Of a stretch of DNA of 44,007 nucleotides, positions 2,925-39,196 are shown one piece after another. Numbering within the stretch: position 1 is the stretch's first letter; the number at the start of each line of letters is the position of its first letter. The stretch is from a phage. Under the pieces are notes generated by a model. It did not search any database, was not told the origin of the DNA, and was given only the letters and a program-made list of their open reading frames with translations. The position numbers were made by a program, and so were the translations under genes. The stretch is taken from sequence record PX907401.1, one strand, 5' to 3'.

Positions 2925-3251
2925 TTATTTCGCAAGCTGGGCGAATAGTTCGCGCTGGGCTTTAATCCGGGCGACGTTTGTCACTGCCGTCTCGCCGATA
3001 CCGAAGCGATACGCCAGGCGCTCACGGGCAAATGCGAGCGCGTAGTCCTGGATAGCGTTTGCGAGTGGCTGGATCTCCGCCATCGTGTCGAATCGGTCCT
3101 CCAGCATACAGGCGATGGCCTGCTGCGTGACGCGGACAACGGACCACGCTGCCGATAGTCTTTCGACCGCTTCCGCTCCTTCACTGGCGAACTCCGCCGC
3201 TTCTTGCGCCGCCGCCATAGCCATTGCGTAATTCCAGATTAATGCTCTCAT
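2925..3251 (-). CDS. Hypothetical alpha-helical protein (108 aa), first gene of the minus-strand operon
   Basis: ATG at 3251 with GAGGA upstream; promoter-like element just upstream. Confidence 0.55.
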   Translation of the reverse strand: MRALIWNYAMAMAAAQEAAEFASEGAEAVERLSAAWSVVRVTQQAIACMLEDRFDTMAEIQPLANAIQDYALAFARERLAYRFGIGETAVTNVARIKAQRELFAQLAK

Positions 3252-3696: not shown

Positions 3697-3836
3697 GGCA
3701 ACCAATGCGCGCAAAATTTAACCTTTTAGCGATATGGGAATTCCCATATCGGCAACCAATGCGCGCAAAATTTAACCTTTTAGCGATATGGGAATTCCCA
3801 TATTGGCAACCAATGCGCGCAAAATTTAATCTTTTA
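3697..3836. repeat. Tandem direct repeat, 54-bp unit x about 2.6, each unit with a perfect 18-bp palindrome ATATGGGAATTCCCATAT and a GCAACCAAT motif
   Basis: Units at 3697-3750, 3751-3804 and partial 3805-3836; palindromes at 3732-3749 and 3786-3803; overlaps the primase stop codon (3826-3828). Confidence 0.9.
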
Positions 3837-6090
3837 AATCATCATCGGTCGCTGAAAGCGTGATGGGTATGTTCGTTTTGATGACGATATTAGACGACCC
3901 ATAGATGGCCCCGGTGTGTGGGTCTGTGTAAAACCCAAGCACGCCGCGCTCGACCATATCGTCTATTGCCTTCGTCGATGTGCCACCTTTTGCCAATCCC
4001 GCCTGGCGGACGATTGCCGATTTACTGAATCCGGTATGGTCCGGGTTATCTTCCATCAGTTTTTCCAGTGCCGCATAAAGCACTTTCTCTTTTTCGTTGC
4101 GCGGTCCGGCGGCATTCTCTTCCTTAACTGCGGCTTTGCCAGCGGCCTTTGCTTGCTCAATGGCGAACGGTGCCAGGGCGACCGGTACGAGATAAAGAGT
4201 CTCGTCGCGTGGCGTGGATGCAATTGGCTTGACGTCCCAACCGGCAACCACGTCGCCGAAGTCAGGCCCGGTGCTGGTGGACTGGTGTGATTCGAACGCT
4301 TCGGACTTGCGGAGATCCACCTTAACCTTGCACTTGAGCAGGACGAAGCCGCGCGGCGCTTGCTTGATGCCGTTACGTGCCTTTTCGTGATACAGGTTCA
4401 ATTGGCCCGGCTGATTGTCGTCCGGTTGCTCCAGGAAGAACGCAGAATCGACAGCGCCATGCAGCGCGCCGGACCCACGGGGAGATCTGCTGCCGTTTGC
4501 ACCCTTCGCCGGGTGGTGGATGACGCCCGCACTGCCGCCTGTATTTTCCGCAATGGCCTTCAGCGCTTTGACCACTTCACCCATATCGCTGGCGTTGTTC
4601 TCGTCGAACGGTTTTGCATTGGCGGACCGCAGCGCAACAGTCTGGTTGAGTGAGTCGAACGCCACCAGGCCAACCGGTTCGCCGTTAGCGGTGCGGTTGA
4701 TGAAGCTGATAACTTCGCGCAAGCCGGACTTGTTGGTGATATCCCAGCCGCGTGACTGCAGATCGATAATGTGCAGCTTGTCGAGGTCGTGCTCATATTT
4801 AATCTGCAATGCTTCTTTGCGCTGGTTAGAGGCTTCACCACCTTCCGCATCGAAATAGAAGCAATGAGACTGGACGACCTTCGCACCGCCGAACGGAATA
4901 CCGGCGGCAACCGCGCCCATCTGCCCCAGCACATAGAAAGACTTACCAATGTTCGACTCGCCCGCCATATACCAGGTCGATTTGAAGTTAATCAACCCCT
5001 CGATAATCGGGTCGTGCTTACTGAACAGCGCAACCGGCTCGTTATCCAGATCCGCATCAGTACACACGCCGTACTCGTCGCCGTCTCCGACCGCATCAAC
5101 GATATGTTCATAGCACGATTCCACTTCCTCATCGTCCAGTCCCGGAAGGATGGCGGCGATTTGCTTACGTGACATGTTGTGCGGCTCGACGTTCAGGTGG
5201 TCCGGGATCCCGATAAGACGTAGCGCCAGGTGCTGGTGTCTGTTCAGTTCCGAGCAACACTCGTTGCCGGTGTGCATACACTTGAAACGGATCTCGCCAT
5301 CCTTAACCATGATAGCGGTTGACCCTTCGCCACTATGCAGATGTTCGTTCGGGCATGGCACTTCATAACCCCGACCGGACGACAGCGGTTCGAATCCTGC
5401 CTGGAAGCACCAGTCCAGAATGCCGTCCGCCACGCCGTCATCGCCCTGGGTTAGTTCGCGGCGTACTTTCTCTTTTTCCACTCCCAGCTTATCAGCCAGG
5501 CGAAGCAGACGACGGACGCGGGCACGCTTGCCGTAGTGGCACTTAATAACGGACTGCTGGTGTGGCAGGTACATCAGGCGGTTTGTATCTTTCGTGCAAT
5601 CGTCGAAGTCCACATCTGACAGACCCAGTTGGTGTAATAGTGCATACTGGACGCGGCCCAGGTCTTCAGCCGGTACAGGCTTGTCAGTGAGCACCAGGAA
5701 ACGGGCGCAACGCGTGCCGCCCTTCAGCGGGTGGCGGTCGCCGGTGGTGGTGTGAAATACGTGTTCCAGACCCGAGTCGATGAACGCCTTACGGCAGCGG
5801 CGCAGGGTGCGGGTGTCGGTGCGGTCAATATCAAAGAACAGGATCGAGCGGTCCACCGCACTGGTCTTACGACGCAATCCGTCACTGGTATACGCCACGA
5901 TGCCATCGGCCTTACGCTTGCGGCGCGCATACTCGGCTTTATCTTCCGTCTTGTTGATATGCACCGAGGAGATTTCTTTCGCATCTTTGATAAATTCGAA
6001 AAACTCATCGGTCGTCATCTGGAAGTTTTCCGCCCTGGCTTTTTCGCCTTTTTTAGCGGGTTTTGTTACAGCGAATTTAATCAAGCTCAT
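3826..6090 (-). CDS. Bifunctional DNA primase/helicase (primase-like N-terminal domain, P-loop ATPase C-terminal domain)
   Basis: 754 aa; FFDIDRTD acidic motif in the N-terminal domain; Walker A GESNIGKS and Walker B-like VAFDSL in the C-terminal domain. Confidence 0.8.
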   Translation of the reverse strand: MSLIKFAVTKPAKKGEKARAENFQMTTDEFFEFIKDAKEISSVHINKTEDKAEYARRKRKADGIVAYTSDGLRRKTSAVDRSILFFDIDRTDTRTLRRCRKAFIDSGLEHVFHTTTGDRHPLKGGTRCARFLVLTDKPVPAEDLGRVQYALLHQLGLSDVDFDDCTKDTNRLMYLPHQQSVIKCHYGKRARVRRLLRLADKLGVEKEKVRRELTQGDDGVADGILDWCFQAGFEPLSSGRGYEVPCPNEHLHSGEGSTAIMVKDGEIRFKCMHTGNECCSELNRHQHLALRLIGIPDHLNVEPHNMSRKQIAAILPGLDDEEVESCYEHIVDAVGDGDEYGVCTDADLDNEPVALFSKHDPIIEGLINFKSTWYMAGESNIGKSFYVLGQMGAVAAGIPFGGAKVVQSHCFYFDAEGGEASNQRKEALQIKYEHDLDKLHIIDLQSRGWDITNKSGLREVISFINRTANGEPVGLVAFDSLNQTVALRSANAKPFDENNASDMGEVVKALKAIAENTGGSAGVIHHPAKGANGSRSPRGSGALHGAVDSAFFLEQPDDNQPGQLNLYHEKARNGIKQAPRGFVLLKCKVKVDLRKSEAFESHQSTSTGPDFGDVVAGWDVKPIASTPRDETLYLVPVALAPFAIEQAKAAGKAAVKEENAAGPRNEKEKVLYAALEKLMEDNPDHTGFSKSAIVRQAGLAKGGTSTKAIDDMVERGVLGFYTDPHTGAIYGSSNIVIKTNIPITLSATDDDLKD

Positions 6091-7556: not shown

Positions 7557-7745
7557 ATGGCTATATTCTTTGTTTTATTTCGTTGCCGTATCACCGGCGA
7601 CGAGCAACCGGAAATTGTTATGAATCAAAACTGGAATTGCTGCTGGATGCAAGCCCGAGGACTGGCGGCTACCAAGAACAATGCCGCTAAGCGGGCCAAT
7701 GTTGAACACGATTATTACATTGCTCAGTTTACAAGGGTGGAATAA
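7557..7745 (+). CDS. Hypothetical protein (62 aa)
   Basis: Start overlaps the upstream stop (TAAATGG); tightly packed operon. Confidence 0.4.
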   Translation: MAIFFVLFRCRITGDEQPEIVMNQNWNCCWMQARGLAATKNNAAKRANVEHDYYIAQFTRVE

Positions 7746-9175
7746 TGGCGATTAAACCAAAACGTAAGACGCAATCCGGTAGCAATACCGAACACTCATT
7801 ACTCGGGCCGTCCGGTGCTAAAAAATGGATGGGTTGCCCTGCCGCTCTGGTGGTAGAAAAAGATATCCCAAACGAATCCGGGCAAGCCGCGATTAACGGT
7901 ACGAGTATGCACACCGTATCGGAGGTGGTGCTAAACCGCATTATCGCCGGTGAGAAGCTGATAACCGCGAAGACGCATAAAGGGTGCTACGTCGAGAACG
8001 AAGGCAAGGGGCCAGTAAAGGCACACCCTAAAGCACCGAAAGGCGGCGTACTGGTCAACGACGACATGGTGAAACAGTGCGACGCGTACATCGACCACTG
8101 GCGACCGCTCCTCGAAGTGGCGGAGTTTGTCCAGCTTGAGATGCGCGCCGATCTCACCCGCGTCCTACACTCTGGCTTCGAGATCGACGGCAACCGGGTT
8201 AAGACGTTCGGCACTGCGGATATGGTCATGGTCATGAAGAAGACCGACGGCACGTACATGCTGATTGTTGGCGACCTGAAGACGGGGCGGCATAAGGTCG
8301 AGGCGAAAGAAAACAAACAGCTTATGCTGTATGCGCTCGGCCTGCTGCGCAAGCTGAAAACTATGTACGACATTACGACCGTGCGCCTGGTTATCTTCCA
8401 GCCGTATTGCGGCGGGGCGTCGGAGTGGGATATTTCAGTGGAAGCCCTGGAGATATTCGCGAAGTTTGCGTCCAAGCGTGCAATCGCCGCCCTGGAAGCG
8501 TACGCACGCGGCAAAAAGGGACTCACCCGCGCCGACTTCAGACCGAGCGTTGATGCGTGCCAGTGGTGCAGATTTGCGGACCAGTGCAGCGTCCGGGCGA
8601 AGGCCGCAATCGACACGATGACACCGCCAACGGCAACCGACGAAGACCTGGGCGACGACGTGAGCGTGGCTACCGAGGAAGAATGCGCCAATCACGACCG
8701 CAATATGGCCCGCGAAGCCCGGAAGGCGGCCCGACGTGCGAAGCGTGGTAAGAAAGAAGCGGCCCCCGGCGCTATGAGCGCGGCGGAACTGCGCAAGGCT
8801 TATGAAGGCCTTGATGCGATGCGCCAGCACATCAAGGCTATCGAGTCCGCGGTATTCAAGGCCGTAATGGCTGGTGATGGCGAATCGCTGGGCCTCAAGA
8901 TGGTTGCCGGTAAGGAAGGAATCCGCAAGTGGGCGGACGAGAGCGAAGTGATTGAAATCTTCACGAAGGCCCGGATCAAGCGCGATGTGATGTACAAAGA
9001 AACATTACTCAGTCCTACGGATGCCGAGAAGGTACTGAAGGACGAGAAGCCGAAAGTGTGGGCCAAATTGTGTGATAAAATAACGCGCGCACCGGCCAAA
9101 CCGGTATTAGCACCCATTGACGACCCGCGCCCTGCGTGGTCTGAAGCTACTGACGAGGACTTAAGCAATGAATAA
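7745..9175 (+). CDS. PD-(D/E)XK-family exonuclease (Cas4/DUF2800-like) with C-terminal Cys cluster
   Basis: 476 aa; N-terminal HSLLGPSGAKKWMGCP; core VGDLKTGRHKVEAKENKQLMLYALGL (D..K and Q..Y motifs); CQWCRFADQC cysteine cluster. Confidence 0.8.
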   Translation: MAIKPKRKTQSGSNTEHSLLGPSGAKKWMGCPAALVVEKDIPNESGQAAINGTSMHTVSEVVLNRIIAGEKLITAKTHKGCYVENEGKGPVKAHPKAPKGGVLVNDDMVKQCDAYIDHWRPLLEVAEFVQLEMRADLTRVLHSGFEIDGNRVKTFGTADMVMVMKKTDGTYMLIVGDLKTGRHKVEAKENKQLMLYALGLLRKLKTMYDITTVRLVIFQPYCGGASEWDISVEALEIFAKFASKRAIAALEAYARGKKGLTRADFRPSVDACQWCRFADQCSVRAKAAIDTMTPPTATDEDLGDDVSVATEEECANHDRNMAREARKAARRAKRGKKEAAPGAMSAAELRKAYEGLDAMRQHIKAIESAVFKAVMAGDGESLGLKMVAGKEGIRKWADESEVIEIFTKARIKRDVMYKETLLSPTDAEKVLKDEKPKVWAKLCDKITRAPAKPVLAPIDDPRPAWSEATDEDLSNE

Positions 9176-9410: not shown

Positions 9411-9500
9411 CCGCTTAGGCGCAACCAAGTAGATTATCAACCAAGCCGGACGGGGTGGCTCACAATAACCCCGATACATGTGAAAATGAGGAATTGGAAA

Positions 9501-10223
9501 ATGACTAAAGTCAACCTGAAAAATGTGCGCGTATGTTTCCTGAAAATTTGGGAACGTGATACCCCTAAACAGGATGGACAAAAACCGGCATACCGCGCCG
9601 TGATTCTTCTTGATAAAGAAGATCCGCAGGTGGACAAAGTGGAAGCGGCAGCACGCGCAGTGCTCACCGACAAGCTGAAATCCGAGAAGAATGCCGATAA
9701 GTGGATGGACCGCCACTACGCCCAGGATTCTAAGGAATGTGCAGTTCGCGACGGCGACGAGCGCGACGAAGTGACCGAAGAATTCGAAGGCATGTTGTAC
9801 ATCAACGCCAAGTCGTTCAAACAGCCTATCATTCAAACGTCACTCGGCGAGAAGCAGACTGAACAGGGTCTGACCATCGACGGCGACGAGATTGAAGGCC
9901 AGGAGATCTACTCCGGTTGTTATTGCAACGTGTCCCTTGATATTTGGGCGTGGAACAATACCAACGGCAAGGGTCTCGGGGCGGGCTTGCTGGGCCTGCG
10001 ATTCCGTGAAGACGGCGAAGCCTTCGGCGGTGGCGGGTCTTCTTGCTCCGATGAAGACCTGGACAACGACGACGAAGACGAAGCACCGCGCAAGGCTAAG
10101 AAGTCAAAACGTCGTGATGACGATGAGGAAGATGAGAAACCTCGCAAACGTCGTAAGCCACGCGATGACGAAGATGAGGACGACGACGAAGACGAAGCAC
10201 CACGTAAACGTCGCCGCCGTTAA
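9501..10223 (+). CDS. Putative ssDNA-binding protein (DUF2815-like) with repetitive mixed-charge C-terminal tail
   Basis: GAGGA 8 nt upstream of the ATG at 9501 (ORF frame opens at GTG 9480); N-terminus MTKVNLKNVRVCF...; tail DEDEAPRKAKKSKRRDDDEEDEKPRKRRKPRDDEDEDDDEDEAPRKRRRR; sits between exonuclease and polymerase. Confidence 0.6.
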   Translation: MTKVNLKNVRVCFLKIWERDTPKQDGQKPAYRAVILLDKEDPQVDKVEAAARAVLTDKLKSEKNADKWMDRHYAQDSKECAVRDGDERDEVTEEFEGMLYINAKSFKQPIIQTSLGEKQTEQGLTIDGDEIEGQEIYSGCYCNVSLDIWAWNNTNGKGLGAGLLGLRFREDGEAFGGGGSSCSDEDLDNDDEDEAPRKAKKSKRRDDDEEDEKPRKRRKPRDDEDEDDDEDEAPRKRRRR

Positions 10224-10281: not shown

Positions 10282-10452
10282 ATGCGTATTAAAGCCAGCG
10301 AAGTAAAAGTCGGAATGCAAGTATGGTCCAAGCTACTGGGGGAATATTTCACAGTTGCCGAGATTCGCAACAACGGCGAAGAAATCGCCCTGTCCGACGG
10401 CATCTTCTCCATGATCGGCAGCAATGACGCCGTAGTGAGGATAAAGCAATGA
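10282..10452 (+). CDS. Small hypothetical protein (56 aa), translationally coupled to the polymerase (ATGA overlap)
   Basis: MRIKASEVKVGMQVWSKLLGEYFTVAEIRNNGEEIALSDGIFSMIGSNDAVVRIKQ; its stop overlaps the polymerase ATG at 10449. Confidence 0.5.
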   Translation: MRIKASEVKVGMQVWSKLLGEYFTVAEIRNNGEEIALSDGIFSMIGSNDAVVRIKQ

Positions 10453-13400
10453 AAGACTTCGAACGCCTGTTTCTCGACACCGAGACATTTAGCGGGGTGG
10501 ACCTGAAGAAAGTTGGGGCGTACGCCTACGCAGAGCACCCAACCACCGAGATTATGATTTGCACATACGCCATCGACGAGGGCCGCGTGCAGACATGGGA
10601 TTGCACTGAATCCCCCACAATGCCGCGTGAACTGCGCAAAGCGATCCGCCATGTATCCCGCAAGAAAGCAAAAATCGTGATGGCTAACGGCCTCCTGTTT
10701 GACCGCCTGGTTATTCGCGAGAAGTGGGGTATTGACCTGCCGGTAAGCCAGATCGAAGACACCATGATTATGGCCTTTCGCCACGCGCTGCCGGGTAGCC
10801 TCGATATGCAGTGCCAGGTGCTGGGCGTTGACGCAGAGCACGCGAAGGATAAGGCAGGCAAGGCGCTGATTAAACGATTCTGTAAGCCTACCCCTAAGAC
10901 CTACAAAATACGCCGCTACACTCGCGAGACTCACCCGGAAGAATGGGCCAAATTTCTGCGCTATGCCGCGCTGGATATTATCGCAATGCGTGAAGTCTAC
11001 TGGCGCATACCGGACTGGGGTAATACTCCGAAGGAAGATGAAATCCTACTTATCGACCAGTTGATCAACGACCGCGGCTTCTATGTGGACGTTGACCTGG
11101 CGAACGCCGCGATCAAAGCGGTGCAGGCGCATAAGGAAGAATTGAAGGAAGAAGCCTGGGAGCGATTTGGCGGTAAGCTGACCGGCAATGACTTCCTGCC
11201 AATCCTGCGTGATATCGCCCCGGCGTTCACGATCCACAACGCGCAGAAATCCACACTTAACGACCTACTGGAAGACCCGGACTTCCCGGACGAGGGCAAA
11301 GCGCTTATCGAAATGCGCCTCGGTGCGTCATCAACGGCATCTACTAAATACAATCCGCTTGTCAATGGCCTGTCCGCCGATGGTCGCCGCCGTGGTTGTC
11401 TTCAGTATGGTGGGGCAAAGCGCACGCTACGCTGGGCCGGTAAAGGCTTTCAACCTCAAAACCTGGCGCGTGGCGAGTACAGCGACGACCACGAAGGGAA
11501 GATTAAACGCCGCGAGGGTGAAAGCGACGTCTCGTTTTGGGTCCGGTCGCACATGCTCACCAACGGCATCAACTCCCTGTTACGCGGGACCGCACACTGG
11601 GCGTATGACATATCGAAGCTAACGGCCTCGACCGTTCGCGGGTGCATTATTCCGGCGAAGGGCAAGAAGTTTGTCGTAGCGGACTACTCCAACGTGGAAG
11701 GGCGTGGACTTGCCTGGATCGCTGGCGAGAAAACAGCGTTAATGGTCTTTAAGGCCGGTCGCGATATCTATTGCGAGACTGCCGGTAAGATGTTCGGCCT
11801 GGACCCGGACTACATTAAAGCCAACCGCAAGGACTTACGCCAGATCGGTAAGGCTTGCTTGCACCGCCATACCCAAGTATTGACCAATGGCGGGTTCAAG
11901 GATATTATGGCCGTAACATCAACGGATAAAGTATGGAACGGCGAAAAATGGGTGAGTACAAAAGGCGCGCACCTTATGGGGTGGAAACCAGTGATAGACG
12001 TGGACGGGGTCTTGATGACAGAAGACCACAAAATCTTGACGCATTCATGGAAGGAGGCAAGGCAACTCGTTTCAGACAGGTGCACGATGGCCCGCGCCCT
12101 GGCGAGAGGTATGGACGCCTGGTTATCCTGCGCGAATTACCAAAACGACAGGGGCACAGACAACTGCTGGCTCAATGTGATTGCGGAGCGATGCCAGGAC
12201 GCGTCGGGTATGACAACGTCCGAAGGGGTAAAACATCCCAATGCAACCTCTGCGCAATTGAAGCGACAAAGCGGTATCGTAAACAGTATTTTTGCTACGA
12301 TGACGCAATGCCAGACGATGCGCACAGAACGCGGCTGCTCAACCGGCTGTCCGCGGCAATATCACGAACGACAAACCCCCGCGCCAAAGGGTATAAAAAC
12401 TATGGCGGTCGTGGGATTGCCGTATGTGACGAATGGAAAAGAGATAAAAGGTCGTTTCTTCGCTACGTTCAAACGCTGGACGGCTGGGATAATCCAGACT
12501 TCGAAATGGACCGGGTCGATACAGACGGCAACTATGAGCCTGGAAACCTTCGGTTTGTCAGCCGTTCGGAAAACTGCCGTAACCGGCGCAGCGTGCCCGA
12601 GCTTCAGCGAAAGTGCGATGAAGCCCTTACCCGCATTGCTGAACTGGAACGGGAAGTTAACCTATTGCGAGCCGGTTTACGACCTGATTGATGTGGAAGA
12701 CGGAAACCGGTTCCTTATTGCGTCTAAGTCTGGTTTTCTGGTGGCGCATAACTGCGAGCTAGGCTTGGGCTATGGTGGCGGCGTGGCAGCGTTCTTGCAG
12801 TTCGCTAAAAACCTGGGCCTCGACCTGTACACTATGGCGGACGTGATGAAAGGCACGTTCCCGGATCACATTTGGGCGGCGGCGAAACGCGGCTATGAGT
12901 ACGCCCGCATTAACGAAGCGAAACGCCCACCGAAGCCTGGCAAGAAGGACGAGCGACCGACTTACATACTGCCGAAAAACGTATGGCTGACGTGCGACGC
13001 GATCAAACGTATGTGGCGAGAGGCCCACCCGAAGACGGTTGCCTTTTGGGCCGAGCTTGAGGACGCGGTGTTGTGTGCAATCCGCAATCCGGGCAAAGCA
13101 TACTGGGCTGGCGCGAACGTTCGCCCGGATGGCAAGAAAGCGCTCAAGATTGTTCGCACGAAGGCGAAGCACGACCCAACCTTCGACGAGGAGCGCGACG
13201 ACCCGGACGCTGCGGGGTGGTGGTTGAAAATTGAGTTGCCGTCGGGGCGCATCATGAGCTACCCCGGCATCGCGCTGTCTGTCACGACAGAGATTGACGA
13301 GGACACCGGCAAGAAGCGCACCAGCACACGCATTAAATATCAGGGCGAGAATCAGACGACGCGCCAGTGGGGGTTCCAGTACACCTACGGCGGCAAACTG

Positions 13401-13637
13401 ACGGAGAACATCGTACAGGCGTTGTGCCGTGATATTCTCGCATGGTCCATGCCGGGCGTCGAAGCCGCGGGGTATGAAATAGTCCTGTCAGTACACGATG
13501 AACTGATCACCGAAGTGCCCGACACAGACGACTACACGACAGAGGAGCTTTGCGCGCTGATGTGCGACCTGCCTGTTTGGGCGAAAGGCTTCCCACTTGC
13601 CGCCGAAGGTGATTGTATGTATCGCTACCGCAAGTAG
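10449..13637 (+). CDS. Family-A (Pol I-like) DNA polymerase with 3'-5' exonuclease domain, interrupted in motif B by an intein
   Basis: 1062-codon uninterrupted ORF; Exo I LFLDTETFS; motif A VVADYSNVEGRG; motif B RQIGKA / CELGLGYGG split by a 299-codon insert; motif C VHDE. Confidence 0.9.
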   Translation: MKDFERLFLDTETFSGVDLKKVGAYAYAEHPTTEIMICTYAIDEGRVQTWDCTESPTMPRELRKAIRHVSRKKAKIVMANGLLFDRLVIREKWGIDLPVSQIEDTMIMAFRHALPGSLDMQCQVLGVDAEHAKDKAGKALIKRFCKPTPKTYKIRRYTRETHPEEWAKFLRYAALDIIAMREVYWRIPDWGNTPKEDEILLIDQLINDRGFYVDVDLANAAIKAVQAHKEELKEEAWERFGGKLTGNDFLPILRDIAPAFTIHNAQKSTLNDLLEDPDFPDEGKALIEMRLGASSTASTKYNPLVNGLSADGRRRGCLQYGGAKRTLRWAGKGFQPQNLARGEYSDDHEGKIKRREGESDVSFWVRSHMLTNGINSLLRGTAHWAYDISKLTASTVRGCIIPAKGKKFVVADYSNVEGRGLAWIAGEKTALMVFKAGRDIYCETAGKMFGLDPDYIKANRKDLRQIGKACLHRHTQVLTNGGFKDIMAVTSTDKVWNGEKWVSTKGAHLMGWKPVIDVDGVLMTEDHKILTHSWKEARQLVSDRCTMARALARGMDAWLSCANYQNDRGTDNCWLNVIAERCQDASGMTTSEGVKHPNATSAQLKRQSGIVNSIFATMTQCQTMRTERGCSTGCPRQYHERQTPAPKGIKTMAVVGLPYVTNGKEIKGRFFATFKRWTAGIIQTSKWTGSIQTATMSLETFGLSAVRKTAVTGAACPSFSESAMKPLPALLNWNGKLTYCEPVYDLIDVEDGNRFLIASKSGFLVAHNCELGLGYGGGVAAFLQFAKNLGLDLYTMADVMKGTFPDHIWAAAKRGYEYARINEAKRPPKPGKKDERPTYILPKNVWLTCDAIKRMWREAHPKTVAFWAELEDAVLCAIRNPGKAYWAGANVRPDGKKALKIVRTKAKHDPTFDEERDDPDAAGWWLKIELPSGRIMSYPGIALSVTTEIDEDTGKKRTSTRIKYQGENQTTRQWGFQYTYGGKLTENIVQALCRDILAWSMPGVEAAGYEIVLSVHDELITEVPDTDDYTTEELCALMCDLPVWAKGFPLAAEGDCMYRYRK
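11856..12752 (+). other. Intein (protein-splicing element) within DNA polymerase motif B
   Basis: Starts with Cys (CLHRHTQVLTNGGFKDI), TxxH-like block (EDHKILTHSW), ends VYDLIDVEDGNRFLIASKSGFLVAHN followed by +1 Cys; flanks reconstitute the RxxxKxxxFGxxYG motif. Confidence 0.75.
11933..12691 (+). CDS. HNH-type (HNH_3/AP2-like) homing-endonuclease-like ORF in the -1 frame, entirely inside the intein
   Basis: 252-codon ORF; GERYGRLVIL...CDCG...QCNLC (Zn-ribbon-like) and GYKNYGGRGIAVCDEW...DRVDTDGNYEPGNLRFVSRSENCRNRR; the overlapping polymerase frame is also open throughout. Confidence 0.55.
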   Translation: MERRKMGEYKRRAPYGVETSDRRGRGLDDRRPQNLDAFMEGGKATRFRQVHDGPRPGERYGRLVILRELPKRQGHRQLLAQCDCGAMPGRVGYDNVRRGKTSQCNLCAIEATKRYRKQYFCYDDAMPDDAHRTRLLNRLSAAISRTTNPRAKGYKNYGGRGIAVCDEWKRDKRSFLRYVQTLDGWDNPDFEMDRVDTDGNYEPGNLRFVSRSENCRNRRSVPELQRKCDEALTRIAELEREVNLLRAGLRPD

Positions 13638-36275: not shown

Positions 36276-36977
36276 TTACTCGTCACCCATTTTAGCGATG
36301 ATTTCACCGGCCTGTTTGGTGAGATCGGTGATACCGAAGCTATGGCCCATCGTAATTTTAGACTTCACATCTTCGACAACCTGCGTCGGTTTGCTAGGCG
36401 CGCCACCGGCTGGCGTGCCAGCCAGGACTGATGCAAAATCGGCGTTATTACGGAACTCTTTTTCAAGCTCTTCCATAGTCAGCGCGGACGGTTTGCCATC
36501 CTGCAAGACACGCACTTTCAAGCTGCCGTCTTCGCCGTCTTCCAGCGTCAGGCGGTCCATTACGTGGCGTTGCATGATGCCCGCATTCTTACCGAATAGC
36601 TTCGATGCCAGGTCTTTGGCAGCGCTGCCGATGGTTAGATCGTGGATCTGCTTGCGGTAGGCTTCGATTTTTCCCGCTGTGTCTGCTTCGTGTTTCGCAA
36701 ACTTATCTTTCCAGGACTTGTCGATCGCTTCGAGGTCGCCATTTTTGCGCGCTGCGGCTTCCTCTTTCTCTTTCGCAAGGCGCTCGGCTTCGGCGCGACG
36801 TTCAGCTTCTGCTTTCTTCTCGCTCACCAGCTTCGCGTTGTTGTCTTTCAGACCCTTGATCTCCGCCTGTACTTCTTCTGCGGTCATGAACGTTGATTTA
36901 TACCCGTCGCCATCGGCAACAAAAAGCGCCTTCATGCCTTCCGGCAACGCGTCATATTCTGCTTTAGTAAGTTTCAT
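36276..36977 (-). CDS. Scaffolding protein
   Basis: 233 aa from the ATG at 36977 (GGGGGA RBS); charged coiled-coil stretch with repeated AEAERRAEAERLAKEKEEAAARK; immediately upstream of the capsid gene. Confidence 0.65.
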   Translation of the reverse strand: MKLTKAEYDALPEGMKALFVADGDGYKSTFMTAEEVQAEIKGLKDNNAKLVSEKKAEAERRAEAERLAKEKEEAAARKNGDLEAIDKSWKDKFAKHEADTAGKIEAYRKQIHDLTIGSAAKDLASKLFGKNAGIMQRHVMDRLTLEDGEDGSLKVRVLQDGKPSALTMEELEKEFRNNADFASVLAGTPAGGAPSKPTQVVEDVKSKITMGHSFGITDLTKQAGEIIAKMGDE

Positions 36978-37066
36978 GCTATCCCCCTGGGATTGTGGCA
37001 AAGCGGGCCACCCGCTTGACTTCACGCCTTAATATTATCAGCGATAAAAATAATCGCAAAATTCGC

Positions 37067-37096
37067 TTGCAATCCGCGTATTGGTTGCACTATATT
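37067..37096 (+). promoter_or_regulatory. Promoter for the clamp-like gene (-35 TTGCAA, 18-bp spacer, -10 TATATT) with tandem ATTGGTTGCAC motifs
   Basis: TTGCAAtccgcgtATTGGTTGCACTATATTGGTTGCAC read directly. Confidence 0.5.
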
Positions 37097-37125
37097 GGTT
37101 GCACACCAACAACGAGGATATGACA

Positions 37126-37638
37126 ATGATTAAAGTTAACTATGCCGATCTTAAAGCCGCTATGATGTGCGCCGCAACTAATGACGTGCGATACTATCTG
37201 AACGGTGTATTTTTCGACGAGAAAGGATTCATCGTAGCCACCGACGGTCATCGCTTGTTCTGCGGGTCCGCGGTTGTTCCCGAAGGTGAAAGTAAAATAG
37301 TAGCAATTAAAGGCCGCTTACCTACTAAATTCGAATACTGCAACATAGACGGCACCTCCGCTGCGTTCTTTGATAGTAAAGACGTATTAATCGGTACCAT
37401 ACCCGTAGAGATCGTAGACGGCCGATTCCCAGACTGGCGTAGAGTTACGTCTTTCGATAGCGCTAAGGTGGAAGCTATAGGGTTTGCCGGGGGCTACCTG
37501 TCCGACGCCTGCAAAATTGCTAAATTGTTCGACCGTAAGTTTGATAGCTTAAAACTGGAATTTCAGGGAGTAGACAAGGCGACACGTGTGCTTTTCAAAG
37601 GTGGTGCATTCCTTGTTATCATGCCGATGCGTTTGTAG
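37126..37638 (+). CDS. Truncated beta sliding-clamp (DnaN) homolog: domain II plus the C-terminal end of domain III only
   Basis: 170 aa from the ATG at 37126 (GAGGA 7 nt upstream); NDVRYYLNG, VATDGHRL, VDGRFPDWRRV and C-terminal VIMPMRL match E. coli DnaN QDVRYYLNG, VATDGHRLA, VDGRFPDYRRV, VVMPMRL (from memory). Confidence 0.7.
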   Translation: MIKVNYADLKAAMMCAATNDVRYYLNGVFFDEKGFIVATDGHRLFCGSAVVPEGESKIVAIKGRLPTKFEYCNIDGTSAAFFDSKDVLIGTIPVEIVDGRFPDWRRVTSFDSAKVEAIGFAGGYLSDACKIAKLFDRKFDSLKLEFQGVDKATRVLFKGGAFLVIMPMRL

Positions 37639-37641
37639 CTA

Positions 37642-37672
37642 ACAAAAAAGGGGGGCCATCACGGCCCTCGAA
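37642..37672. terminator. Bidirectional terminator between the clamp-like gene and the spanin genes
   Basis: Hairpin GGGCC-ATCAC-GGCCC; minus strand followed by CCCTTTTTTGTT. Confidence 0.5.
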
Positions 37673-37889
37673 TTATTTTCTGCAACTCCAGCACTTGCGC
37701 CCTTAGCTTAGCCCCGCATTCCATATTTTTAACATCAACCAGCAAGTCTTCGTCTGGATCTGCCGAGGCATTCTCAAAGGTGCAAGGAGGTCTATAGACC
37801 GACTCGGTTAGCGGCATCAATGGCGCTTTGCTTGATCCGCACGCGCTCAGCATCAAAACTGCAATCAGGACGGTTAGGACGCGTAACAT
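37659..37889 (-). CDS. Outer-membrane spanin (Rz1-like lipoprotein)
   Basis: 76 aa; lipobox MLRVLTVLIAVLMLSAC; Pro-rich mature part with Cys residues; GAGG RBS; overlaps the 3' end of the Rz-like gene in another frame. Confidence 0.6.
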   Translation of the reverse strand: MLRVLTVLIAVLMLSACGSSKAPLMPLTESVYRPPCTFENASADPDEDLLVDVKNMECGAKLRAQVLELQKIIRGP

Positions 37890-38100
37890 ATTTTACAACC
37901 TCTTTCGTGATGGTCCTGTATTCCACATCGCGGGCCTGTTCTGCCTGCACGGCCCCCTCGACAACCTTAGTTTGCTGCCGTTGGGCTTTCGCTTGCGCTT
38001 CTTGCGCCGCTCTCGTCTCAACGCCAGTGCGGTAGGAATCACCCTGCCAGAATCCAACCGCCAGGCCAATTACCAGCCCAATCGCTGCATACTTAATCAC
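37792..38100 (-). CDS. Inner-membrane spanin (Rz-like)
   Basis: No ATG; likely GTG start at 38100 (track ORF begins TTG 38130); N-terminal TM AAIGLVIGLAVGFW then coiled-coil RAAQEAQAKAQRQQ. Confidence 0.55.
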   Translation of the reverse strand: MIKYAAIGLVIGLAVGFWQGDSYRTGVETRAAQEAQAKAQRQQTKVVEGAVQAEQARDVEYRTITKEVVKYVTRPNRPDCSFDAERVRIKQSAIDAANRVGL

Positions 38101-39196
38101 GCCATAACCCCCGGTTTTTAAGCTGCGCAATAGTCATTAGTTCGCCCGTATCGGTGAACATCTTCGGCACTTTCACGCCTCGCATAATCTGGTCGGCGCG
38201 CTGCACTCCATATAATTCCTCCAGAATATGGCGCGGCTGGCGCTGCACCCATGAGAAGAAATCAGTCTGCGCGTCGACCTGCTCACTCAGCAATCTGCCC
38301 GCTTCAGCCTTCAGTGCCGGACGCTTACCACTGGGCCAATCTTCCATGCCCTTAACTTTCCACGTCTCCGTCGAACGGCAGCAATAATGCAGCTTGCCCG
38401 GACCAGCGCCATATTGTGATCCCGCCACCACTTTCCCGCCGCGTTTTCCTTTGGTGTCGGGAGTGACGTCAACAGGATAAAACAGGCGATCGCGTAGCTG
38501 GCACATAGGGGAAGTATGCGTGTCCAATGTAGCCAACCATTGGCGACCTTCGAGAATATCGTCATTAGCTTTTACCATTAATTCGCGGGCGGTTGCCGCA
38601 TAGTGGTTGACCGCGGACTTAACAACGCTTGAGATTGCTTGCGCACTACGACCGCCTAGCGCGCGCCTCACGTCCGCAATAATTTCCATAGTCGGCTTGC
38701 CCTGAATGAATCCAGCGCGCACCTGATTCCCGATCTGCGTCCGGGTCCACTCCGAAAGTGAATCGGGCCACTGTATCATGGTGTTACCCTGGAACGGGTT
38801 TTTCATTGCAGTCGCTGCAATCTGCGCGCCGGTAACAACGCCAACTACTTCAACAGCGGGTACGGCGACAGCGGGCTGGATCGCTGCCGTTAATGTGTCG
38901 GCGAGATAATCAGCCTCGGTGTCGGCGAACTCCTGAAGGCTTTCAGCCAGCGCCTTAAACTCGGCGCGCAGTTCCGTTTTGACGGTCTTGTCTAGTTGCG
39001 TTAATAGAGTGGTAAGTGCCTTGTTGTTCATGGACTTTTTGCCATCAAGTAACTCGGTCAGCTTACCAAGTAAAGTGGGCCGGAACTTCTCCCACATAGC
39101 CAGCACCCTCCGCGCCTGATCATTGCTCAGGCGCTGGGTGAAGATGTGACGGCGAATCATTCGATCCGCCAAATGTTGATTAATTGTCTTCGCCAT
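38093..39196 (-). CDS. Head morphogenesis protein (Mu F-like minor capsid protein)
   Basis: 367 aa; LATLDTHTSPMCQLRDRLFY motif typical of Mu-F/SPP1 gp7-like proteins; directly downstream of the portal gene. Confidence 0.75.
   Translation of the reverse strand: MAKTINQHLADRMIRRHIFTQRLSNDQARRVLAMWEKFRPTLLGKLTELLDGKKSMNNKALTTLLTQLDKTVKTELRAEFKALAESLQEFADTEADYLADTLTAAIQPAVAVPAVEVVGVVTGAQIAATAMKNPFQGNTMIQWPDSLSEWTRTQIGNQVRAGFIQGKPTMEIIADVRRALGGRSAQAISSVVKSAVNHYAATARELMVKANDDILEGRQWLATLDTHTSPMCQLRDRLFYPVDVTPDTKGKRGGKVVAGSQYGAGPGKLHYCCRSTETWKVKGMEDWPSGKRPALKAEAGRLLSEQVDAQTDFFSWVQRQPRHILEELYGVQRADQIMRGVKVPKMFTDTGELMTIAQLKNRGLWRD

Follow-up and report, generated by a model that had tools for sequence, protein, structure and literature searches.

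In bacteria, DNA replication and repair share a central docking hub in the beta clamp, which is also a drug target, and a phage gene that encodes only part of a clamp raises the question of what such a fragment can do for a phage. The gene in question, referred to here as the mini-clamp, lies in the genome of a Dhillonvirus-type coliphage (PX907401.1), the full 44,007 nucleotides of which form the window analysed. An initial annotation, made by eye from the sequence, described its product as domain II of DnaN joined to the end of domain III, with the partner-binding pocket retained and ring formation lost.

Locus and source genome

The mini-clamp is the sole plus-strand gene between the head-scaffold and spanin genes, with the flanking late genes lying on the opposite strand. 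The ~1 kb surrounding it shares 96% identity with Escherichia phage AV129 and Sodalis phage SO-1. The features of the locus are as follows.

36276-37025, minus strand: head-scaffold gene, the upstream neighbour of the mini-clamp
37067..37096, plus strand: predicted sigma-70-like promoter (-35 TTGCAA, 18-nt spacer, -10 TATATT; 9/12 consensus match)
37079-37090 and 37093-37104, plus strand: two exact 12-bp direct repeats, TATTGGTTGCAC, flanking and overlapping the -10 element
37114..37118, plus strand: putative Shine-Dalgarno element GAGGA, as read from the sequence, 7 nt before the ATG at 37126
37126..37638, plus strand: mini-clamp coding sequence (170 aa and stop), encoding a compact 19-kDa, pocket-only beta-clamp derivative
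37651..37669, no strand assigned: G+C-rich hairpin with T-runs on both strands, a predicted bidirectional terminator serving the mini-clamp (plus) and the spanin genes (minus)
37659-38130, minus strand: spanin genes, the downstream neighbours of the mini-clamp

The start deposited for relatives is the ATG at 37120, two codons upstream and only 1 nt past the GAGGA element.

Homology and domain architecture

The homology to DnaN first noticed by eye is borne out by database and profile searches, with BLASTP aligning residues 9-107 of the mini-clamp to residues 139-247 of E. coli beta at 36% identity (E 5e-13), and phmmer matching 34 beta-clamp sequences among those of the PDB (top E 7e-9). A profile of 73 family members aligns with DnaN in hhalign at a probability of 99.7% (E 5.7e-26), in one alignment that starts at beta 141, reaches the C-terminal residue 366, and is broken by a single gap of ~60 columns. 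The coding sequence divides into two regions of homology.

37126..37452, plus strand: homologue of domain II and the II-III linker; residues 1-109, equivalent to E. coli beta 131-249
37453..37635, plus strand: homologue of the second half of domain III; residues 110-170, equivalent to E. coli beta 309-366

Neither beta 1-130, which forms domain I, nor beta 250-308 has a counterpart in the mini-clamp. The absence of domain I thus stands as first described, whereas the description of the remainder as the C-terminal end of domain III was a slight understatement, as the whole second beta-alpha-beta-beta-beta half of that domain is kept.

Structure prediction, proposed as a check by the initial annotation, gives the same picture, with the AF2 model being a confident, self-contained monomer (pTM 0.90), the backbone of which superposes on the clamp at 2.2 Å. 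The model contains just two long helices, and the second DNA-facing helix of domain II therefore appears to have been lost. All sequence, profile, and structural matches of the mini-clamp are clamps, and in both sequence and fold it is a DnaN homologue. The sole Pfam match at E<=1 is a partial one to the DnaN central domain PF02767 (23.9 bits, under the 27-bit cut-off), and the score of 26.7 against the DnaN equivalog TIGR00663, compared with a cut-off of 137.65, falls short of that of a three-domain protomer. No family among the PADLOC defence-protein models matches the mini-clamp at E<=1.

The partner-binding pocket and the ring interface

Subsites I and II of the clamp pocket comprise 18 distinct residues as listed in a 2024 review (PMC11139829), 16 of which are identical in the mini-clamp, compared with 35 of the 142 other aligned positions (Fisher p=1.6e-7). 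This agrees with the earlier suggestion that the conserved segments line the partner pocket. The two exceptions are N320, replaced by A121, and V344, replaced by D150. The pocket residues lie in five segments.

37186..37206, plus strand: VRYYLNG, residues 21-27, equivalent to beta 151-157; includes R152 and L155
37234..37257, plus strand: VATDGHRL, residues 37-44, equivalent to beta 170-177; includes T172, G174, H175, R176, and L177
37417..37446, plus strand: DGRFPDWRRV, residues 98-107, equivalent to beta 238-247; includes P242, R246, and V247
37486..37497, plus strand: AGGY, residues 121-124, equivalent to beta 320-323; N320 replaced by A, Y323 kept
37615..37635, plus strand: VIMPMRL at the C-terminus, residues 164-170, equivalent to beta 360-366; includes V360, M362, P363, M364, and R365

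Despite a mean column identity of only ~22% across the 73 family members, the columns equivalent to beta 151-157, 170-176, 238-246, 323, 362, 363, and 365 are at least 80% conserved, and these correspond to the pocket and the residues that directly scaffold it. The same 73 members showed no other conserved surface. Residue identity and the backbone superposition together suggest that the hydrophobic peptide pocket between domains II and III is preserved.

Mutation of I272/L273 renders beta monomeric (PMC11139829), and this segment falls within the missing beta 250-308, with the domain I surface also missing. As both halves of the head-to-tail dimer interface are absent from the alignment, we infer that the mini-clamp is unable to form or join a ring, in line with the inability to form one that had been proposed at the outset.

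A large phage family of short forms

The truncated architecture is not confined to the window, with a word-indexed search retrieving 136 relatives of 170-271 aa, none of them a full-length clamp, and an exhaustive profile search of 1.84 billion representatives retrieving 1,392 at E<=1e-30, the best 150 of which are all 170-312 aa. By tblastn the family is present in 251 phage records, with hosts including Salmonella, Escherichia, Klebsiella, Proteus, Serratia, Vibrio, Burkholderia, Acinetobacter, and others, and at least 504 IMG/VR viral contigs encode a relative. Many viral models of 163-250 aa in BFVD have the same truncated shape (TM 0.8-0.87 by both normalisations), and phrog_3007 matches the mini-clamp from end to end (residues 1-170, E 2.3e-56). 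Pairwise dN/dS among four Dhillonvirus copies, those of the window and three orthologues, is 0.07-0.24. The mini-clamp is therefore under purifying selection and a member of a large phage family of short forms.

The gene itself is not new, being already known from databases and from a 2011 survey, in which Kazlauskas and Venclovas reported shorter phage polIII-beta homologs (PMC3201878). Deposited genes 91-99% identical to the mini-clamp carry the label 'DNA polymerase III beta subunit', with the further note 'possible moron gene product' in the SO-1 record of 2009, and genome papers have reused the clamp label with the truncation unremarked (e.g. PMC9825357). A limited literature search found no functional study of short phage clamp proteins.

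Many relatives are extended at the C-terminus, with 68 of 120 family members (relatives P0035-P0120) bearing tails of 6-80 residues past the MPxR motif, in which a Trp motif (LP-x-W-A-L, or AAW) recurs; the mini-clamp of the window is tailless. The tail of one such relative, P0075, is ordered in its AF2 model (pLDDT 75-87). Of the 208 members of at least 185 aa, 95 end in '-AA', an ending that is reminiscent of a ClpX-type C-terminal degron.

An accessory slot shared with Nmad5

Approximately 155 phage records match the flanks of the mini-clamp, only 16 of which hold a copy at least 90% identical. The mini-clamp is thus an accessory gene, present in about 1 in 10 Dhillonvirus-like records, which is newly noted here. 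The slot between the scaffold and spanin genes (window 37026-37658; L010:1727-2491; L016:1028-2362) is a hot spot for accessory genes, in which three payloads are seen: the mini-clamp alone, as in the window, SO-1, and TheodorHerzl; Nmad5 (PF18757) alone, as in Oekolampad; and Nmad5 followed by the mini-clamp, as in WF5505 and others. The same conserved upstream region, including the promoter, precedes all three, lying before Nmad5 in Oekolampad and before Nmad5 and the mini-clamp in WF5505, in which a homologous hairpin is also found 3' of Nmad5. This suggests that the mini-clamp and Nmad5 share a conserved expression cassette, also newly noted here. The gene's own promoter and terminator, claimed from the outset, hold up as consensus matches backed by conservation, with the promoter region conserved in relatives whatever the payload. 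The predicted promoter and terminator, the orientation opposite to the neighbouring genes, and the presence/absence variation together place the mini-clamp among phage morons or accessory cassettes.

Nmad5 in the Dhillonvirus slot is reported to be dispensable and toxic to clone, and to play a part in escape from Tmn immunity, with a K-to-E mutation in Nmad5 allowing Dhillonviruses to escape (PMC11846954). The possibility that the mini-clamp is itself an anti-Tmn gene was rejected, as the anti-Tmn gene of that study is ORF35, which encodes a helical rod protein. Nmad5 was likewise rejected as an obligate, general partner, since the window is without it and it lies near only 2 of 80 viral loci examined with 10-kb flanks, which are too short for genome-level co-occurrence statistics. 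Nmad5 is retained as a slot-mate of the mini-clamp. Separately, in a Salmonella prophage (L004-L006) an Nmad5 or SIR2 gene shares the early operon of the mini-clamp.

An early-type promoter

The repeats at the mini-clamp promoter belong to a motif, TATTGGTTGCAC or (T)ATTGGTTGCA, that occurs at 13 sites in the window compared with 3.8 expected, a number reached in 0 of 100 shuffles. These sites are at 2718, 3272, 3303, 3661, 6617, 13922, 16864, 16881, 18541, 18553, 21075, 37079, and 37093. The copies are often paired, and at several sites a TTGCA-type -35 is followed by the motif and then by a TATATT or TATAGT -10. All the sites lie in the non-structural half of the genome except that of the mini-clamp, which is in the late half, and the leader ACCAACA-GAGGA is common to the mini-clamp and the gene starting at 3251 on the minus strand. 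The motif is probably a signature of the early promoters of the phage, or an operator for some regulator, and the mini-clamp promoter accordingly appears to be of the early type, a feature newly noted here.

Temperate relatives and replication modules

In the Salmonella prophage, the mini-clamp of which is 49% identical to the window protein, a strong terminator closes the repressor gene and is followed by a promoter matching 10/12 consensus positions and then by the mini-clamp. A 22-nt operator-like repeat, ATATACAGGTTTACTTGTAATT, is present in three copies (L004 8847-8914 and 9679-9700) that lie between the repressor and cro-like genes and across the promoter of the mini-clamp, which one copy overlaps. 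The mini-clamp thus appears, from this arrangement, to lead an early operon under repressor control, as newly noted here, and in two metagenomic phages (L007 and L009) it is likewise the first early-operon gene. Expression in the lysogen was rejected for these temperate relatives, as the terminator and the operator-bearing promoter separate the repressor gene from the mini-clamp. A structured leader of ~300 nt separates promoter and gene in the Salmonella prophage. Within the 10-kb flanks of the 80 viral loci, a CI-like gene is found nearby in 14 and a ParB-like gene in 39. In Skatevirus Bas77, the mini-clamp closes an islet of genes encoding an anti-restriction protein, a ParB-like protein, and a DNA methyltransferase.

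A replication module of their own, comprising a DUF2800 nuclease, an Enc34-type SSB, PolA, an SNF2 helicase, and a primase-helicase, is found in the window and in several relatives. No annotated polymerase was found in two other carriers, T1-like Klebsiella phage ZCKP8 and Bas77, the large unnamed proteins of which are mostly of helicase or ATPase types, with two giving no Pfam match. Carriers of the mini-clamp therefore include phages that encode PolA as well as phages without a polymerase, which is newly noted here, and a universal link between the mini-clamp and PolA was rejected because of the polymerase-less carriers. A scan of the window replication proteins for clamp-binding motifs gave only two QLxL[FY]-type matches, QLMLY in the core of the DUF2800 nuclease and an internal QLNLY in the primase-helicase, neither terminal nor conserved. 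As an estimated ~5 chance matches are expected in a proteome of this size, such a scan cannot point to a ligand. A 'P-x-W' likeness between the C-termini of DUF2800 and PolA and the tails of longer mini-clamp relatives was also dropped as evidence, as these stretches of DUF2800 and PolA lie within or adjoin conserved domain sequence.

Several of these replication proteins have features of their own. The family-A DNA polymerase ORF of the window (10449-13637, plus strand) encodes 1062 aa, compared with 763 aa in TheodorHerzl, owing to a 298-aa in-frame insert at ~11856-12749 that extends from C470 ('CLHRH...') to '...LVAHN' before Cys768 ('CELGLGYGG'); the flanks of the insert are 90-92% identical to the uninterrupted gene, and the insert has the signature of a putative intein. 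The DUF2800 nuclease (7745-9175, plus strand) ends in '...PAWSEATDEDLSNE' and the primase-helicase (3826-6090, minus strand) in '...LSATDDDLKD', giving the two a common acidic 'ATD[ED]DL' tail that is not a canonical clamp-binding motif, and in the Salmonella prophage the SSB and DUF2800 nuclease both have a 'DFDD[IV]S...A..LI' tail. By analogy with the tails of T7 gp4 and gp2.5, these shared acidic tails suggest a common docking partner. The Enc34-type ssDNA-binding protein of the window (9480-10223, plus strand) ends in alternating acidic and basic repeats ('...DDEDEDDDEDEAPRKRRRR'), in contrast to the simple acidic tip of its relatives.

Proposed function and alternatives

We tentatively favour, at a little under an even chance, a role for the mini-clamp as a sponge for clamp clients early in infection, exerted by a soluble module that forms no ring and binds clamp-binding motifs. 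Unable to encircle DNA or to join the host clamp dimer, the protein would stay soluble, with its preserved pocket binding clamp-binding-motif peptides of the QL[SD]LF-like kind. Made early, it would compete with the host clamp for single-motif clients, candidates for which include the delta 'wrench', Pol II/IV/V, MutL/MutS, Hda, and RecB, and drawing these off DNA-bound clamps may serve as a host-takeover or anti-defence measure. Two published observations concern such clients, with delta binding monomeric beta ~50-fold tighter than the dimer (PMC11139829), and the QVEMEF motif of RecB binding the clamp pocket in a functional interaction that matters after DNA damage (PMC13254535). As phages of many hosts all keep a canonical pocket, unaccompanied by another conserved surface, conserved host motifs are more likely ligands than lineage-specific phage proteins. 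A monovalent, soluble pocket would be a weak competitor against the Pol III holoenzyme, which makes several contacts on DNA-loaded clamps; multivalent Pol III would thus be little affected, which would reconcile the mini-clamp with phages that need the host Pol III. A decoy that simply disables host Pol III is disfavoured, since it would harm the carriers without a DNA polymerase of their own. With greater reserve, we regard as possible the broader proposal of a phage 'hub mimic', a soluble copy of the clamp docking pocket that is made at the start of infection and draws off clamp-docking proteins such as the RecB nuclease, the clamp-loader delta, MutL, Hda, translesion polymerases, and motif-bearing defence or rival-phage proteins.

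The main rival reading is a replisome adaptor, which could also accommodate several of the observations described above, though we consider it unlikely. Here the pocket would bind a phage replication protein (PolA, the DUF2800 nuclease, the Enc34-type SSB, or the primase-helicase) or the alpha subunit of host Pol III, tethering partners inside the phage replisome or recruiting the host polymerase to it. The early operon shared with DUF2800, Enc34 SSB, PolA, and primase genes in the Salmonella prophage and the two metagenomic phages (32-49% identity), the same replication module in the window, and a promoter class in common with replication genes all speak for such a role, as does the need of polymerase-less carriers to use host Pol III, the alpha and epsilon subunits of which carry clamp-binding motifs. 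However, near-identical Dhillonviruses that share this replication module can do without the mini-clamp, the replication proteins of the window lack a conserved terminal clamp-binding motif, and there is no second conserved surface with which to tether. Furthermore, no single partner is possible for both PolA phages and polymerase-less phages, and PolA lies within 10 kb in just 4 of the 80 viral loci, a distance too short for genome-level counts. A non-ring processivity factor that binds DNA directly, in the manner of herpesvirus UL42/UL44, is improbable. Direct binding has been proposed generally for viral homologues of the clamp with a raised pI and no clamp loader, a reading to which the scattered, only mildly raised pI of this family (median 6.5, with 27% below 6) lends little support. 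Against it, one and a half domains should have four DNA-facing helices, of which the model retains only two, and the gene is accessory and also found in phages without their own polymerase.

The exposed half-domain would in principle need a partner surface, and clamp domains consist of two similar halves, so that a true sliding ring rebuilt by oligomerisation can be envisaged, for example from four copies of one and a half domains to give six. This is very improbable, with both native interface segments missing, a monomer model that is already confident and self-contained, no clamp loader found among the annotated genes of the inspected relatives, and family lengths and tails that vary widely. 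The truncation relative to DnaN, together with scores under the curated Pfam and NCBIfam cut-offs, would also fit a functionless remnant of a captured host dnaN fragment, but this reading is close to refuted by the low dN/dS, by the same architecture across at least 1,392 clusters, and by a confident fold accompanied by a predicted ribosome-binding site, promoter, and terminator of its own. Finally, phrog_3007, which matches the mini-clamp at E 2e-56, bears the name 'RusA-like Holliday junction resolvase', and this name is repeated in RefSeq records and many Pharokka annotations. No RusA family is matched in the Pfam scan at E<=1, which yields only the DnaN central domain, and the sequence, profile, and fold matches are all clamps. 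As a statement of homology the RusA assignment is refuted; the label is wrong and appears to be an annotation error spread by copying.

Comparison with known systems

Compared with E. coli DnaN (366 aa; PF00712/PF02767/PF02768; TIGR00663), the mini-clamp is under half the length and is without domain I, the first half of domain III, the dimer-interface segments and, as modelled, one DNA-facing helix of domain II. It is also phage-encoded and accessory, with an early-type promoter as predicted here, and would form no head-to-tail ring. The beta* product, which Skaliter, Paz-Elizur, and colleagues reportedly described in 1996, is said to be a UV-induced 26-kDa protein made from an internal dnaN start near residue 135, to retain domains II and III in full, and to oligomerise and stimulate Pol III. 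Both beta* and the mini-clamp are N-terminally truncated clamps with a similar start, with the mini-clamp also lacking half of domain III.

The short phage polIII-beta homologs of the 2011 survey (PMC3201878) and phrog_3007 are the same kind of object as the mini-clamp, namely DnaN homologs minus domain I. The survey described them as spanning 'the second and third domains' without proposing a particular role, to which the present analysis adds that only half of the third domain is present, that the pocket is the sole conserved surface, and that the family exceeds 1,000 clusters. The laboratory mutant beta I272A/L273A (PMC11139829) is likewise a non-dimerising protomer that offers the pocket, but retains three domains and DNA binding, whereas the phage protein has deleted the interface instead. 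The herpesvirus factors UL42, UL44, BMRF1, and PF-8 are viral proteins of the clamp fold that act without being loaded as a closed ring, with a peptide of the polymerase bound close to the cleft between domains. That phages attack the clamp by means of ligands is already known, with Twort Gp168 (PDB 7evp) and Mu MuC (PMC12867686) acting on the host clamp pocket and showing that the pocket and its motif network are targets of phage manipulation. In contrast to these proteins, which carry the ligand and bind the host clamp, the mini-clamp carries the pocket, and such a pocket-only copy would represent the inverse strategy.

Significance

The present analysis corrects the 'RusA-like resolvase' misannotation in RefSeq and in Pharokka-annotated genomes. 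The mini-clamp would offer a minimal pocket module of natural origin for binding studies and inhibitor screens, and the gene is a handle on the clamp clients that matter in infection, with BASEL phages available both with it (TheodorHerzl, Bas14) and without it (Oekolampad, Bas18). If the proposal of a hub mimic is true, these proteins would constitute a new class of host-takeover or anti-defence protein across more than 1,000 phage lineages.
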